Virus record (IMG/VR): IMGVR_UViG_3300021387_001267
Location: 1-64,000 of that record
Origin: a virus
Lineage: Duplodnaviria; Heunggongvirae; Uroviricota; Caudoviricetes
Length of the DNA stretch: 64,000 bases
Reading direction: 5' to 3' (one strand)
This document shows, piece by piece, positions 2,641-44,398 of this stretch; the first letter of the stretch is position 1; each line of letters begins with the position of its first letter. Both the position numbers and the translations under genes were made by a program. The notes below the pieces were generated by a model. It had not been told where the DNA came from and made no database searches. It saw nothing but the letters and a program-made list of their open reading frames with translations.

Positions 2641-3531
2641 TTACGTAGTCATCAGCGCAAGAGTACGCGTAACCGGCTCAAAGACGTTTCCTTCTTCGTC
2701 TTCAAATATAATTGCCATGACCTCATCACCCTCATAGAAGACGGATCCGAGCTTTGCCTTGAACGGGTGCAGTGGATTCCACTCTGCCACACCGCCGGCC
2801 GGACAGTCTGGAAGTCCGAGGAACCCTCTCCACTTGTTATAGTTCAGAACATGATTGCGTTTGATATATTCTTCTGCAAGTGCGATGGCGTTTTCAACAT
2901 CGTCAACAGTTCCCCAGAACGGAGATCCAAGATACGTGTCAAAGATCAGAATTTCGTTTTCTCCATCCGATTTCTTGCTGACGTCAAACGGCGTATCACC
3001 GTTCATTTTTTCATCGAGAACTTCTTTTCTGAAATCATTGCGAATCTCTTTGAACTCTTCGCTGCCGACCTTGTCCTTGACCGACTTTGCGAATTTCTTT
3101 AGTTTATCTTCGCTCGCTGCAAGCGCAACCGTGAGACCCGCAATCTTGCTTCCGCTGATGCGATTCGACGCAAAGCTGCACCCGAAGGACAAAAATCCGA
3201 ACAACGCAACATACTTATATGCCAGAGCGTACTGAACATCGCGGTTGATACGTGCTTTTCTTTCGAGATCCTTCATTTCTTCATCATCGATCTTTCCGGC
3301 TGTCCGGTCCTTCTGAATGCTGGCACTCTTTTCTTCGTAACGATTCCGGATCTTTACGACATTCTTTGATGCCTTGAACGCTGAAAAAATGCAGAGTCCG
3401 AGCGCAATACCGGATCCCGCGCACAGAATCGTCGGCGCATGATCATCAATAATTCGCTTAATGTCATTCAGTGTTCCGGGATTTGTAGACTTGACTTTGC
3501 CGAATGTTTTAAATACTTTTCCGAAATTCAT
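2641..3531 (-). CDS. hypothetical membrane-anchored protein (paralog of 995..1873)
   Basis: ORF track 296 aa; N-terminal TM; conserved blocks shared with 995..1873. Confidence 0.5.
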   Translation of the reverse strand: MNFGKVFKTFGKVKSTNPGTLNDIKRIIDDHAPTILCAGSGIALGLCIFSAFKASKNVVKIRNRYEEKSASIQKDRTAGKIDDEEMKDLERKARINRDVQYALAYKYVALFGFLSFGCSFASNRISGSKIAGLTVALAASEDKLKKFAKSVKDKVGSEEFKEIRNDFRKEVLDEKMNGDTPFDVSKKSDGENEILIFDTYLGSPFWGTVDDVENAIALAEEYIKRNHVLNYNKWRGFLGLPDCPAGGVAEWNPLHPFKAKLGSVFYEGDEVMAIIFEDEEGNVFEPVTRTLALMTT

Positions 3532-26115: not shown

Positions 26116-26817
26116 TTACTCCTCCATCGTAATAAACTCCGAATAGGGCAAGCTACGGATCCAGTCACAATACTGATGCCACTCATCGAGCTTGTGGTTT
26201 TTCCTCTGCCGATATTGCGCCGCCAGAACTTCATAGTTCAGATCGATGGTCCTCTTCTGGTTATAGGAACTCGGAAGCAGCTGGATCATCTGGTACCAGT
26301 AGACTTTGTCTCTGGTTTTCAGAAAAGCTTCTCTTGCAGCGTTCATCATTTCAATCTGAATTTTCAGACTGTCATACGGTCTTAGTTTTCCATCTTCAAA
26401 ATCCTTCGAACTAATCCAAAGTTCGTGCGGCATATCTACTGCCGGAATCAAATGTTCACACGAAAAATCATCCAGCGTAAATTCCTTCGCCTGAATCTTA
26501 TGCATTGTGGAGCAGCTGTTCGAGACCGTTGCAATTTTGTAAGTTTCAAACTCTTTCCACCAATAAAGAGGCGCCGTCACATCCATTTGGACATGAACCA
26601 TGCGCCTCCATTTTGCTTCCTCGGTTCCTCCCTTGCAGAGATTCATGAGGAGTTTATGATCATTAGGGCCGATGTATGCCGATCCTCTGTGGCAAGACAT
26701 TCCTTCGTCATCGCACCAAAAATCAGTATCAGACTTTTCTCGACTGTTCATTGGATTTCTGCAGCCAAGTATAGCCATTCTCCATCCGAAAACTTCAGTA
26801 TTCTCGATTTTAATCAT
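26116..26817 (-). CDS. divergent ThyX-like (thymidylate synthase complementing protein fold) protein without canonical RHR motif
   Basis: ORF track 233 aa. Blocks VHVQMDVTAPLYWW and KIATVSNS resemble, from memory, the Thermotoga ThyX segments FHVKAPIFVARQW and RIASYNELS. The RHR-x7-S catalytic motif itself is absent. Confidence 0.35.
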   Translation of the reverse strand: MIKIENTEVFGWRMAILGCRNPMNSREKSDTDFWCDDEGMSCHRGSAYIGPNDHKLLMNLCKGGTEEAKWRRMVHVQMDVTAPLYWWKEFETYKIATVSNSCSTMHKIQAKEFTLDDFSCEHLIPAVDMPHELWISSKDFEDGKLRPYDSLKIQIEMMNAAREAFLKTRDKVYWYQMIQLLPSSYNQKRTIDLNYEVLAAQYRQRKNHKLDEWHQYCDWIRSLPYSEFITMEE

Positions 26818-27499
26818 CTATATGCCTCCAATTAATATTTTGAGCAGCGTCGCTTATCGTCGTTCTGTTAACACCAAATTTTCGAGCTAAAGCAGCGAAA
26901 CCAAATTCACGATCGTTCTTTTTATATACTTGACGAATATAATGGACATCGTTTTCAGTTAATTTATGAATTGGGTTGTTTTCGCCATGCATCGGAGATT
27001 CTAGCCCATAAGCAAATGCATGTTTTAAATTATCAGAACGTGTACACCACTCTAGGTTTTCAACACGATTATCGGTCTTGACTCCATTTATATGATTAAC
27101 TTGTTCGAGATTATTTTCATTCGGGATAAAACATTCTGCGATTATTCTATGAATATCTCGATTCTTTTTGTTGATAATGGTATGCCGGTATCCATCTCTG
27201 CCTATAGCGCCCTCCATCATATGCCCATGAAGGTTATAAATATTTCCAGATGGAAACGCGGCATAGTGATCTTCAACAATTTTTCCGTCCTCAAGATTGT
27301 CGCCATTAAGCTCGATGACATGCTTAAATCTATTTATTCGGTAATCATTTACTGCATTTTTAGCATCATCTTCACATTTATACGTGCCAAGATTTATACT
27401 TTTAGATTTCTCACTAACAAATGTTTCATATTTTTGATTTTCAGTTTGCCGATAGCTTTTTGCAGGAAGATTCTTTATTGCATCTTCAATTTCAGTCAT
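26810..27499 (-). CDS. HNH homing endonuclease (HNH + NUMOD-like C-terminal DNA-binding helix)
   Basis: ORF track 26810..27565; start moved to MTEIEDAI with AGGAGGAGGG SD; HNH-type stretch NLHGH...HINGVKTDNRVENLEWCTRSDN and C-terminal FGFAALARKFGVNRTTISD. Confidence 0.7.
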   Translation of the reverse strand: MTEIEDAIKNLPAKSYRQTENQKYETFVSEKSKSINLGTYKCEDDAKNAVNDYRINRFKHVIELNGDNLEDGKIVEDHYAAFPSGNIYNLHGHMMEGAIGRDGYRHTIINKKNRDIHRIIAECFIPNENNLEQVNHINGVKTDNRVENLEWCTRSDNLKHAFAYGLESPMHGENNPIHKLTENDVHYIRQVYKKNDREFGFAALARKFGVNRTTISDAAQNINWRHIDD

Positions 27500-27522
27500 T
27501 TCTGTCCCTCCTCCTAGCTTGC

Positions 27523-27705
27523 CTAGATGCCAGTTTCTCCTTTCTGAATTCGCGACAGGTAACAATCTTTACAAATCTCAGTCGTCCCTTGCAAATGAAT
27601 AATGTCCGCGACGTTGATTTCCGGGCGCGAACATTCAACGGTTAATACCACCTTGAACCAAACGCCCATTTCCTTTCCGCAAATATCGCACTTATGAATT
27701 ATCAT
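27523..27705 (-). CDS. zinc-ribbon protein
   Basis: ORF track 60 aa; CDICG...CKDC. Confidence 0.45.
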   Translation of the reverse strand: MIIHKCDICGKEMGVWFKVVLTVECSRPEINVADIIHLQGTTEICKDCYLSRIQKGETGI

Positions 27706-41122: not shown

Positions 41123-41542
41123 TTATGTAAACAGATCACCTCTTTTCTCTCGTAGACTTACATAGTCATATGGAGTTAAGATAAAGTGATCCAATACTTT
41201 GATTCCGAGCACTTGCCCGGCTCGAACTAGTAACTCGGTCGCTTCGATATCTTCGTGCGATTCCTGTAGAGTTCCGCCAGGATGATTATGCGCAACGAGT
41301 ATTGAAACAGCGTTCTGCAGCAATGCCGTTTTAAATACACTGCTTACAGTAAAAGGTACAGAACAAGTTGAGCCGATTCCTGCGATGTGGTAGCTGATTG
41401 GTCGTCCTTGGGCGTCCATGTTAACCGAAATGAAATACTCCCGATCGGCGTCAGCAAATTGTTCTTGCAATATTCTTCCTGCATCCCAGGTATTTCGTAT
41501 GGGCGAGGCTGATGCGATGGCCCGTACTTCTTGAAGGTACAT
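41123..41542 (-). CDS. RadC-like JAB/MPN domain protein
   Basis: ORF track 139 aa; LVAHNHPGGTLQESHEDIEATELLVRAGQVLGIKVLDHFIL matches the RadC/UPF0758 JAMM-like core (HNHPSG...S..D...T..L....LGI.LLDH). Confidence 0.75.
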   Translation of the reverse strand: MYLQEVRAIASASPIRNTWDAGRILQEQFADADREYFISVNMDAQGRPISYHIAGIGSTCSVPFTVSSVFKTALLQNAVSILVAHNHPGGTLQESHEDIEATELLVRAGQVLGIKVLDHFILTPYDYVSLREKRGDLFT

Positions 41543-41888: not shown

Positions 41889-42039
41889 TTGCTCGAAAAA
41901 TGCTATTAAACATCATCCTTTCATAAATTATTTTAGTCCATAGAAATCATCTCCACTCACCTTCCATATATTAATAAAGCCCTCCCGCGGTCGACTTCAC
42001 GAGAGAGCTTTAGCTACACCTGACGATTTATAACGTCAT

Positions 42040-42477
42040 TCATTTGGCATCGCCACGCTTTCCAAGAGAGCGAATCTCATCGAATGCTTTTTCAAGCTCA
42101 GCATCAAATTCTTCTGCTGGTACTTCCGTATATTCTTGTTTAATGCATTCGACTGGATCTTCCGCATCCGAAGCACGTGTAAATACATCACGAATAATTA
42201 GTCTTCCAACATCCGCTCGAATAGTCGGATCATTGCAGCAGAATAGAATCGGAAGTCGGTACTCGTTGAATGCTGTGTATGATTTATTATATTGAACTGG
42301 CGGAATGTCTATAATTCGAAAATAATTATCGTCTTCGTCTTTAAATGACATCCCAACCAATTTTTCGAGTTTATTCTGTAGTTCTTTGATACGATTGCCA
42401 CGTAACTTCTCATATTCAATTTTGAGATCTGTTATTTTATTGCTAATTTCTTTTATTTTGATTTCCGTATCGCTCAT
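42040..42477 (-). CDS. hypothetical coiled-coil protein
   Basis: ORF track 145 aa; AAAGGAGAATAAAT SD. Confidence 0.5.
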   Translation of the reverse strand: MSDTEIKIKEISNKITDLKIEYEKLRGNRIKELQNKLEKLVGMSFKDEDDNYFRIIDIPPVQYNKSYTAFNEYRLPILFCCNDPTIRADVGRLIIRDVFTRASDAEDPVECIKQEYTEVPAEEFDAELEKAFDEIRSLGKRGDAK

Positions 42478-42527
42478 TATTTATTCTCCTTTTACTTTCA
42501 TACTTTAAATCGTTCGAGAAACTTCAC

Positions 42528-42546
42528 ACAAAATATCCCGTGTGCA
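42528..42546. repeat. 19-bp direct repeat CCGTGTGCATTTTCGTGTG, copy 1 (candidate integrase arm-type site)
   Basis: Exact copy at ~42760-42778; the two flank the tRNA-fragment core beside the integrase gene. Confidence 0.5.
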
Positions 42547-42684
42547 TTTTCGTGTGCAGAAATTTCACTCAGAAATGCAAAATAGCTCCCAGATCTGAAA
42601 GCGACGTCTCAGACCTGAGAGCTCAAAATGACAGTAAAATAAAGGAAAATCCCAGAACCTCAACGAGGCCTGGGACTCTCAATC

Positions 42685-42725
42685 TGGAGCGGATGATGGG
42701 AGTCGAACCCGTCATATGAGCCCAT
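42685..42725 (-). other. 3' fragment of a tRNA gene (T-arm and acceptor 3' strand, GGGTTCGACTCCCATCATCCGCTCCA on the minus strand): candidate attP core
   Basis: T-loop TTCGACT flanked by GGG/CCC, then a 7-nt acceptor strand, discriminator and CCA. No complementary 5' acceptor strand or D-arm upstream, so it is a fragment, as is typical of a phage attachment core. Confidence 0.55.
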
Positions 42726-42759
42726 CACCCACCCAGTAATTACTGACGCTCTTCAATCG

Positions 42760-42778
42760 CCGTGTGCATTTTCGTGTG
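42760..42778. repeat. 19-bp direct repeat CCGTGTGCATTTTCGTGTG, copy 2
   Basis: See 42528..42546. Confidence 0.5.
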
Positions 42779-42909
42779 AAGAAGAATTAAGATGATGCTC
42801 AATTATACCAATTGCACACGATAGGCCTTCGTTCCATCCATAATCAAATTGGTATTCTGGACGCTCTTCTCGCTGCTCTAGTATTTCCTTAATTATCTCA
42901 TTCAATATC

Positions 42910-43962
42910 TCATCCATTATACAGTTTCTCCATTTTTTCGTCAATAATCTGCCCGAATTCGTCCTCCTTGTCTCTTAATGTATGCTGATAGACGTTCTGT
43001 AACATATTTTCGGTCTTATGCCCCATGCGCTTCATAGAGTACTTATTTGGAACTCCAAGTGCATGAGCTTCAGATGCAGCAAAATGTCGAAGATCATGGA
43101 ACCTGCATGGCTCAACTCCGGCTTTCTTACAGATGCTGACGAAATTCTTGTAGATCGTAATGTCAGCATATGGGCAAATATAATTTTTCGCGATTTCTTC
43201 TTTGGTCTTTCCAGTATCTTCTAGTTTCAGCCTCTCGACGATAATCAAATGTTGAATTGTTCCAGGACACTTAATCCAGCGATCGCCAGAAACTGTTTTC
43301 GTCCCCTTTTCAATGCTCTTCCCTTCCGAATCACGAACAACGGCCGTATGAATGTGGAGTTTACCTTCTTTCAGATCCTCAAACTTCAATCCACGAACCT
43401 CGCTCATTCTAAGACCCATCCAGGATCCGAGCAGAATCGAAAGCTCATATTTAGTACCCTTCACAGCGTTCCAGACTTTCTGCATTTCTTCTTCGGTAAA
43501 TATGCGCATTTCAGTCTGCTGCTTTTCTGGCAAATGAGTATGCGTAGAGAAGTTCGGTCTAAATTCTTCAAGAACAGCATTCAATAATCCATGAGCATTT
43601 CGAATTGTCTTCGGCGACTTTCCATTCAGTGCTTCGTTCGATACGGAAAGCTGAATATCACCCTGGGTCAGATCCGAAATATTAATGTCCATAAGATCCT
43701 GAAGATAGTTCTTTCGGACGGACTTATACCCACGAATTGTACTCGAAGACAGAACACCGGACTTTTCAGTTATATACTGATCCATAGCACGGCCCACGGT
43801 CATCGGAAGTCGTTTTTCCATTTCTGCCCCTGCGAAAATTTGCTTAGCCTTTTCCTGAGCTTCCTTCTTTGTAGCTCCGGTACAGGAATATCTGTGTCCA
43901 TCTATCTGGATTTGAATTCGCCAATTGCCAGATTTAAGTTTCGTAGCTTTAGGCAATTTCAT
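42910..43962 (-). CDS. int: tyrosine-type site-specific integrase
   Basis: ORF track 42910..44019; start moved to MKLPKATKL (AAAGGAGG SD; the first ATG abuts the SD). C-terminal catalytic stretch FHDLRHFAASEAHALGVPNKYSMKRMGHKTENMLQNVY carries the R..H..R...Y signature; N-terminal SAM-like core-binding domain. Confidence 0.85.
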   Translation of the reverse strand: MKLPKATKLKSGNWRIQIQIDGHRYSCTGATKKEAQEKAKQIFAGAEMEKRLPMTVGRAMDQYITEKSGVLSSSTIRGYKSVRKNYLQDLMDINISDLTQGDIQLSVSNEALNGKSPKTIRNAHGLLNAVLEEFRPNFSTHTHLPEKQQTEMRIFTEEEMQKVWNAVKGTKYELSILLGSWMGLRMSEVRGLKFEDLKEGKLHIHTAVVRDSEGKSIEKGTKTVSGDRWIKCPGTIQHLIIVERLKLEDTGKTKEEIAKNYICPYADITIYKNFVSICKKAGVEPCRFHDLRHFAASEAHALGVPNKYSMKRMGHKTENMLQNVYQHTLRDKEDEFGQIIDEKMEKLYNG

Positions 43963-44398
43963 TGCCATCCTCCTTTGTAACACGAATATTTGGATGAAAG
44001 TCGGGTCTATACTCGGCAAGAACTTTCAGAATAAAGGTTTTATAACCTTTCAGAGTTTTTACGCTAAGGCCTTTTGCGATTTCCGCATCGAAAGCCTGCT
44101 GAAGAAGCTCTTCAGTAAGTTTATCGAGCCAAATAAGCCACAGACAACTAAGATGATGGTCGATAATGTTCTCATAACCTTTAATTGTCGAAGTCTTGAG
44201 TTCCCCTCGTTTAGAGTCAATATACTTTACGGCTGCCTCCATAAAGCAAAGACGCTCCGGTTCTTCCATTTTGATTTCTTCTGATTGACCTTTAACAAGA
44301 TCTTTTGCCATTTCAAGTCGGTCGATCACTTCATATTTTCTCTTTTCAATCATAATCGTGACATGGTACTTGCAAATATTAAAGTTGCAGATTTTCAT
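43949..44398 (-). pseudogene. truncated paralog of the integrase N-terminal (core-binding) domain; integrase remnant or small accessory protein
   Basis: ORF track 149 aa; YIDSKRGELKTSTIKGYENIIDHHL...KGLSVKTLKGYKTFILKVLAEYRPDFHPN aligns with the integrase N-terminus YITEKSGVLSSSTIRGYKSVRKNYL...NGKSPKTIRNAHGLLNAVLEEFRPNFS; no catalytic domain. Confidence 0.5.

Follow-up and report, generated by a model that had tools for sequence, protein, structure and literature searches.

A predicted tRNA-Gly(CCC) attachment site beside the integrase gene of a temperate-type phage of Oscillospirales

The 64-kb stretch of viral DNA analysed here (positions 1 to 64,000 of IMG/VR record IMGVR_UViG_3300021387_001267; hereafter the window) contains a tyrosine integrase gene, int (42910..43962, minus strand), and, adjoining it as an earlier note on this DNA had recognised, a candidate phage attachment site (attP) of ~290 bp (42494..42783, minus strand). 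Read in the sense of the transfer RNA (tRNA) whose 3' end it carries, the site consists of a P arm, a spacer, a 26-bp core, two terminator-like hairpins and a P' arm. Relatives of the integrase were gathered from IMG/VR, from ENA, Logan and NCBI assemblies and from JGI metagenomes, where they lie on contigs of up to ~95-100 kb from rumen and gut samples. Including the window this gave 23 distinct related sites: 21 complete attPs, one site on a contig that ends before the P' arm (L162) and one junction of phage and host DNA (attR; L134). Eleven of the 23 sites were aligned. The ~290-bp block is kept in the 11 aligned relatives (integrase identity to the window 64-92%), and its flanks diverge; the stretch from the int stop codon to the P arm is unrelated between lineages.

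Core, target gene and integrase

The common core, GGGTTCGACTCCCATCATCCGCTCCA (42685..42710, minus strand), corresponds to positions 51-76 of a host tRNA-Gly(CCC), including the CCA. It comprises the final three nucleotides (nt) of the 5' strand of the T stem, the T loop TTCGACT, the 3' strand of the T stem (CCCAT), the 3' strand of the acceptor stem (CATCCGC), the discriminator U73 and CCA. Identity between phage and host extends over 26 nt, ending at T-stem position 50, where the phage reads AC and the host GT, and directly after the CCA. As the core reaches over these 26 nt to the mature 3' end, the phage carries exactly the segment that would restore the gene on the 3' side of a crossover within the T-loop region. 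Across all 11 aligned attPs the core is invariant.

The earlier note had described a tRNA 3' fragment lacking its 5' half. The fragment is present, but its tRNA-identical part is 26 nt long and not ~41-45 nt. ARAGORN detected no complete tRNA anywhere in the 64-kb window, and Rfam returned no tRNA in 42300-43000 even at E = 10, the matches being chance microRNA-like hairpins only, in agreement with the proposal that no full gene is encoded here. The expected counterpart in bacterial tRNA genes was found as well: the 23-nt pattern TTCGACTCCCATCATCCGCTCCA matches at least 120 genome loci, ~110 of which are complete tRNA genes. These complete host genes read GCGG(A/G)TG...CTTCCCAAG...GGTGGGTTCGACTCCCATCATCCGCTCCA, GGG immediately precedes the 23-nt pattern in 116 of 125 sequences, and ARAGORN assigned tRNA-Gly(ccc) to all five host loci tested. 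The whole core occurs exactly in tRNA-Gly(CCC) genes of more than 100 genomes (Oscillospiraceae, Agathobaculum, Butyricicoccus). Among the matches listed, nearly all loci with the core belong to Oscillospiraceae, Ruminococcaceae, Agathobaculum, Butyricicoccus and similar metagenome-assembled genomes (MAGs) from rumen or gut. The predicted host is a member of this rumen/gut Oscillospirales group with the matching tRNA-Gly(CCC), a placement that goes no narrower than the group.

We also considered the 3' end of a transfer-messenger RNA as the source of the core. This was ruled out, as the acceptor 3' strand and discriminator CATCCGC-U follow the Gly pattern and ARAGORN names the host genes tRNA-Gly.

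The spacer 5' of the core (42711-42733, minus strand) and the core itself can form a 13-bp stem (z = -2.4). In one relative the spacer (L004:3500-3536) contains GCGGGTG, which some host tRNA-Gly genes have as their acceptor 5' strand, and after it GTTCAT, as found in the D arm. Both may be decayed relics of a longer tRNA homology. Pairing of spacer and core, be it as a minihelix or as a relic 5' half, is absent as a conserved feature across the relatives.

The int reading frame was taken as 350 amino acids (aa) long because an identical 350-aa protein is on record, the start being the Met that matches this called protein (P0001). Int matches PF00589 (E = 3e-11, above the gathering score) and the phrog_1 integrase family (E = 1.6e-53), and the family profile finds lambda Int with E = 5e-9. 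Six residues (R185, K219, H289, R292, H315 and Y325) are invariant in 34 homologues and form the candidate catalytic set, their roles being assigned by order and spacing; together with the PF00589 match they mark the protein as carrying a tyrosine recombinase catalytic domain. In the AlphaFold model (pLDDT 85) an N-terminal sheet-plus-helix unit is followed by a linker, a helical core-binding domain and the catalytic domain, the N terminus being composed of strands 7-8, 14-20 and 23-29 and helix 32-43 ahead of the low-confidence linker. With the whole protein compared, the best PDB match of the model is full-length lambda Int (1z1b; 345-365 aligned columns). Searching deposited phages with Int by tblastn gave at best ≤42% identity, to unannotated faecal phage contigs, and no named relative; megablast of 42000-44100 against deposited phages gave no match.

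Arm repeats and terminator-like hairpins

Both arms carry a direct repeat that is exact over 19 nt and identical at 23 of 24 positions over 24 nt, with copies at 42538-42561 and 42760-42783. An exact 19-bp repeat flanking the fragment had been reported before; the copy at 42760 stands, whereas the other one begins at 42538 and not at 42528, a slip of 10 nt. Every copy is made up of a pair of 8-mers spaced by 12 nt, which on the minus strand read TGCACACG. The P-arm repeat reads TTCACACG-AAAA-TGCACACG-G (42760..42783, minus strand) and the P'-arm repeat TGCACACG-AAAA-TGCACACG-G (42538..42561, minus strand). Exact TGCACACG 8-mers occur five times in the window, four of them within 42539-42820, where 1.06 would be expected for the window as a whole.

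Two further elements extend the P' arm outwards. An inverted degenerate copy of the arm motif, CTTCACACAAAA (42522..42533, plus strand), lies beside the P'-arm pair and reads ATGCACACAAAA in most relatives, and an outer block, ATTTAAAGTATGAAAGT (42494..42510, minus strand), is kept in 11/11 aligned attPs, including two in which the cassette is inverted; this block could be a further binding site. In the alignment the conserved P-arm pair reads T(G/T)CACACGAAAATGCACACGG and the P'-arm pair CTGCACACGAAAATGCACACGG, followed by the inverted copy, TTTTGTGTGCAT in most sites, and the P' arm is closed by the conserved outer block ATTTAAAGTGTGAAAGT. An additional inverted TGCACACG 8-mer at 42813..42820 (plus strand) was found only in the window and in one relative (L001) and thus probably lies outside the conserved attP.

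The spacing of the arms is constant too. The end of the P arm sits 47-49 nt 5' of the core in 23/23 sites, and the start of the P' arm sits either 126/127 or 115 nt 3' of the core (n = 21 attPs). Which of the two distances is found goes with the type of hairpin 1 present. The step of 11 nt equals about one helical turn and would keep the helical phase.

Several relatives indicate what the arms are tied to. In the window the P-arm repeat is translated as the end of a small open reading frame (ORF; ...SSHENAHGD*), and in L135 it forms, by hand translation, the end of a different small ORF in another frame, so that its conservation is not due to coding. In two relatives (L126:5006-5336, integrase 64% identical; L138:4397-4727, 68%) the whole ~290-bp attP cassette is inverted relative to int; once such a phage is integrated, int would adjoin the regenerated tRNA gene. 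A further relative (L143:4060-4310, integrase 61% identical) retains the arms, their spacing and the two-hairpin layout around a core, GGGTTCGAATCCCGTCGGCCGTACCA, that is the 3' end of another tRNA, which looks like a natural target swap with conserved arms. In L158 (480-800) all four arm 8-mers, in both arms, are changed from TGCACACG to TGCAGACG or TGCAGATG (TGCAGA(C/T)G), a concerted change that would be expected of sites all read by a single protein. Finally, the L134 junction has a diverged P-arm pair, GGACACGAAAATGGTCACGG, at the same distance from the core. The changed frame, the inverted cassette, the swapped core, the concerted change and the diverged junction link the arms with the recombination machinery and not with coding or a nearby promoter. 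Like arm-type sites, the tandem TGCACACG pairs lie on both sides of the core and are unlike it in sequence. We conclude that the repeats are likely to be arm-type sites of Int, a role that the earlier note had proposed for them and that the comparison of relatives bears out. The candidate target of Int residues 1-45, or of the Int paralogue described below, is the stretch TGCACACGAAAATGCACACGG.

The paralogue is encoded immediately upstream of int (149 aa; 43949..44398, minus strand), overlaps the int start by 14 nt and corresponds to the N-terminal half of Int without the catalytic domain. It aligns with Int residues 14-152 by BLASTP (E = 2e-13) and with residues 11-144 by hhalign (probability 99.6%). 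Its structural model contains a confident core-binding-like helical domain as well as an N-terminal hairpin and helix at lower confidence, and the PDB matches of the model are integrase core-binding domains. The family has 141 members, all unnamed, and is found beside int in most, not all, relatives. One may speculate that the paralogue modulates or directs recombination as a regulator or directionality factor.

The region might also be an attP whose TGCACACG repeats bind a protein other than Int, be it a repressor, an excisionase or the paralogue, which has the N-terminal half of Int in common. The P'-arm pair with its inverted copy (ATGCACAC-N10-GTGTGCAT in most relatives) is indeed operator-like and lies ~60 nt upstream of the next gene start, and the N terminus of Int matches no Pfam arm-binding family. 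Yet the int transcription unit has the P-arm copy at its 3' end, a position without an obvious target for an operator, the distances between arms and core stay fixed even when the cassette is inverted or the core swapped, and L126 and L143 keep the arms and lack the paralogue. We therefore rate binding by another protein as unlikely.

Reading the repeats as Int sites, we tentatively suggest, as a possibility on the doubtful side, that the attP is a portable, reprogrammable ~290-bp cassette: arms, helical phasing and twin terminators would stay constant, the core would be exchanged between tRNA genes (mostly Gly-CCC, another one in L143) and the cassette could flip. The paralogue, translationally coupled to int, would then be a possible new directionality or regulatory factor competing for arm or core sites. 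The ~23 natural attP variants, with conserved arms, a swapped core, inverted cassettes and a concerted arm change, could serve in studies of how tyrosine integrases switch their target specificity.

Between core and P'-arm pair lie the two hairpins. Hairpin 1 (42645..42680, minus strand) starts 5 nt past the CCA, has the stem TCCCAG...CTGGGA (42650-42655, 42671-42676) and is followed by TTTTCCTTTATTTT. Hairpin 2 (42584..42623, minus strand) has 17 bp, is followed by ATTTTG and holds CAGATCTGAAAG (42590-42601) and CAGACCTGAGAG (42611-42622) in its arms. Both sequence pairs had been noticed before, the first as an inverted pair and the second as imperfect repeats; they are present, but they form the stem of hairpin 1 and the arms of hairpin 2 and are not protein-binding repeats. 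When folded as minus-strand RNA, the 55-nt segment with hairpin 1 (42630-42684) gives -22.9 kcal/mol (z = -5.15) and that with hairpin 2 (42576-42630) -27.0 kcal/mol (z = -6.15); a terminator scan picks up hairpin 2. The hairpins include G-U pairs that would be C-A on the opposite strand, hence the structure belongs to the minus-strand transcript.

The pairing is also supported by covariation. Across six sequences 96.7% of the cells are paired, a value that drops to 50-60% if the partners are slid by 1-2 columns and to 32-33% if they are slid by 3, and nine pairs over the two hairpins, seven of them in hairpin 2, are changed on both sides. In all relatives the CCA is followed by two hairpins with T runs, the first position being occupied by three unrelated sequence types. 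In sequence both hairpins combine a stable, G+C-containing stem with a U run on the transcribed strand, as intrinsic terminators do, and we regard them as putative terminator-like elements.

Integration and alternative readings

The attR junction was found in an NCBI assembly (L134) with an integrase 67% identical to that of the window. Here int is followed by the P-arm variant, the core, a terminator, a gene for a PUA-domain methyltransferase and further host genes. The same terminator and methyltransferase gene also follow the intact tRNA-Gly(CCC) gene in seven Oscillospiraceae MAGs (69-77% protein identity over ~410 residues). By this comparison L134 is an attR junction with the geometry expected from the window, int lying beside the displaced fragment. 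The search for attL and attR junctions that the earlier note had suggested thus gave an attR for a relative, but neither junction was detected for the window's own lineage in IMG/VR and JGI. A scan of the 120 sampled host loci for arm motifs downstream of the tRNA, as would mark an attL, gave nothing convincing.

More distant integrases are found at the same gene. At five Agathobaculum loci a 33-36% identical integrase lies directly upstream of the fragment and a host terminator. The fragment loci of L013, L083 and L111 are likewise outside any complete tRNA gene, and in L013 and L111 the downstream sequence is that found after intact tRNA-Gly genes in related genomes. Altogether, eight of ~120 sampled genomes (L013, L037, L047, L069, L083, L092, L098 and L111) contain a tRNA-Gly(CCC) 3' fragment without a complete tRNA. 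An integrase homologue (29-36% identical) is located directly upstream at six of these eight loci, and most then carry the sequence that follows intact tRNA-Gly genes. From these sequences tRNA-Gly(CCC) appears to be an integration hot spot in Oscillospirales.

In the Logan assembly of SRR873601 the contig on the int side (L155) stops with the last core base and the one on the P' side (L153) begins with the first, so that the two overlap by exactly 26 nt; both are identical to the window where compared. Logan is built as a k = 31 graph. Such a graph breaks at the core borders only if P-core and core-P' each have two continuations, which fits attP being present together with attL and attR. The same effect could come from co-occurring strains with differences right beside the invariant core, and the breaks are suggestive only.

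In a lambda-type reaction Int would recombine the 26-bp core with its exact counterpart in the bacterial attachment site (attB), the last 26 bp of the host tRNA-Gly(CCC) gene. The N-terminal domain of Int would bind the arm 8-mers, i.e. the tandem pairs of both arms and the inverted P'-arm copies, to build the intasome, as the comparison of sites suggests, and the core would be bound through the core-binding and catalytic domains. The inverted core-type sites are likely the T-stem halves (GGG/CCC in the phage, GTGGG/CCCAT in the host) around the 7-nt T loop, with strand exchange most likely taking place in or beside the T-loop segment. On one side integration would produce attL, in which the 5' part of the host gene and the core are followed by the two terminators of the phage, the P' arm and the long series of phage genes; the predicted junction joins the tRNA-Gly 5' half (...AAGGT) to the core and, on the phage P' side, to GATTGAGAGTCCC. 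On the other side attR would contain the lysis genes, int, the P arm, the core as displaced host 3' fragment and the host terminator. With T loop, acceptor 3' strand, U73 and CCA being supplied by the phage, the tRNA gene rebuilt at attL would not differ from the original one. Transcription of the tRNA gene would stop at the twin terminators, which would block read-through into the prophage; in the free phage it is the int transcript that would end there.

Judged from sequence comparison, the region is very probably a functional-type attP for tRNA-Gly(CCC), in a large phage of temperate type whose hosts are rumen or gut Oscillospirales. A number of observations weigh against this. The core, at 26 bp, is shorter than the 30-45 bp given as typical of actinophages (PMC10865867), and, as stated above, the Int N terminus lacks a Pfam arm-binding match. 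The genes are laid out almost entirely on a single strand over 64 kb, which is unusual for a temperate phage, and no repressor-like gene was recognised among the tested ORFs of the window, including those near int and the lysis genes. A pattern of host T stem, core and phage P' flank, representing attL of the window's lineage, had 0 matches in IMG/VR and JGI metagenomes, and a pattern of core-proximal P-side spacer and core, representing attR, had 11 JGI matches, 11/11 of them in attP form. All ENA and Logan contigs of relatives with an integrase identity of ≥68% are in attP form too, and no lysogen of the window phage or of close relatives was found in these searches.

These observations can be combined into a different picture, in which the attP is a relic and the lineage integrates rarely or no longer, living lytically or as an episome: close relatives are seen in attP form only, no repressor was recognised among the tested ORFs and the gene layout is unidirectional. 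We consider a relic quite improbable. The 26-nt core is invariant and the arms are kept down to 64% integrase identity while the flanks diverge, which points to recombination being under purifying selection, Int has retained its full set of candidate catalytic residues, and the 67% relative is integrated. The Logan contig breaks at both core borders fit a mixture of attP, attL and attR as well, with the reservation about co-occurring strains made above.

The window holds the unintegrated arrangement and not a prophage junction. On the minus strand, tail-like genes, an endolysin gene and a Dp-1-type holin gene precede the integrase upstream of the attP, and downstream of it (window 1-42000) follow a RadC-like gene and ~42 kb of mostly small ORFs on one strand, several of them in PHROG families. 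The order int - attP - small ORFs - RadC recurs across many independent contigs. The earlier note had taken the intact core within contiguous phage DNA as a sign of the unintegrated form, and these flanks confirm it. Displaced fragments beside int genes do exist in host genomes (L037, L047, L069, L092, L098 and L134), so one might take the window for bacterial chromosome and the fragment for a tRNA piece displaced at a prophage end, attL or attR; with phage-like genes on both flanks, identical left and right neighbours in many independent contigs and a conserved phage P' arm, not a host terminator, after the CCA, this is highly implausible.

We give equally little credence to a decayed phage-encoded tRNA gene without a role in recombination: tRNA genes are common in large phages, and both the GCGGGTG and GTTCAT of the L004 spacer and the possible 13-bp stem in the window are reminiscent of one, but a decaying pseudogene is unlikely to hold 26 nt invariant and ending exactly at the CCA across integrases 64-92% identical, the pseudo-5' pairing is not conserved among relatives and reaches a z of only -2.4, and the fragment always accompanies int and the arms.

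An attP for tRNA-Gly(CCC), as favoured here, links the uncultured phage lineage with a host group and an integration-competent lifestyle, and the 26-bp target lets prophages be located in MAGs.

Neighbouring genes and comparison with known systems

Between int and the P arm lies a 54-aa ORF (42753..42917, minus strand), which was also called as a gene on the ENA contig. At its start it shares 8 nt with the stop-codon end of int, at its other end it extends into the P-arm repeat, and it includes the extra inverted 8-mer. No Pfam match was obtained for it, and at its position the relatives, except L001, have unrelated small ORFs; that it encodes an excisionase is only a guess. Within the 3' end of int, a sigma-70-like promoter element with an 11/12 match (TTGACG, 17 nt, TATAAT; 42916-42944, minus strand) is directed across P arm and core, and its conservation may just be that of the coding sequence. 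The first gene on the P' side (42040..42477, minus strand) encodes a protein of 145 aa with no assigned function; after integration it would sit downstream of the regenerated tRNA gene and both hairpins. Further along the window, whose G+C content is 42% and whose ORFs are almost all on the minus strand, are the genes for RadC (41123-41542) and an HNH endonuclease (26810-27565) and two paralogous phrog_2152 genes (995-1945 and 2641-3531).

The arrangement itself is textbook and changes no general view; it stands apart by its host group, its short core of 26 bp, its arm motif and the lack of a close named relative. The attP of phage lambda measures ~240 bp, and the present site, at ~290 bp, is of similar size. 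Like lambda, the phage has an integrase, apparently three-part, whose best profile and structural matches are lambda Int, and a core flanked on both sides by repeated sites unrelated to it. The attB of lambda is intergenic, whereas the core here belongs to a tRNA gene. The arm motif TGCACACG bears no relation to that of lambda and is arranged in tandem pairs spaced by 12 nt, two terminator-like hairpins are placed inside the P' arm, and no sites for accessory factors (IHF, Xis) were recognised.

Mycobacteriophage L5 integrates at tRNA-Gly. Several actinophages, e.g. B22/E1, BritBrat and Spooky, use tRNA-Gly(CCC), and their standard design is a core that holds the 3' part of a tRNA for reconstruction of the gene, flanked by pairs of arm-type sites (PMC10865867). 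The present site likewise has a tRNA 3' part in its core and paired putative arm-type sites, and the actinophage integrases are lambda-like with an N-terminal arm-binding domain (PMC10865867). It differs in its host, Bacillota/Oscillospirales instead of Actinobacteria, in its core of 26 bp as opposed to 42-47 bp, and in its integrase, which is only distantly related.

Genomic islands in tRNA and tmRNA genes, as mapped by Islander, resemble the present phage in that the element carries a tRNA 3' fragment; the regenerated gene and the displaced fragment mark the ends of an island, as they would here. With an identity block running from the T loop to the 3' end, the site would correspond to the T-loop or T/acceptor-junction subsite class of Williams, which accounts for 1836/3919 islands (PMC4383910). 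Unlike the mapped islands, which are seen as end points, the site described here is seen unintegrated, as an attP inside a phage genome.

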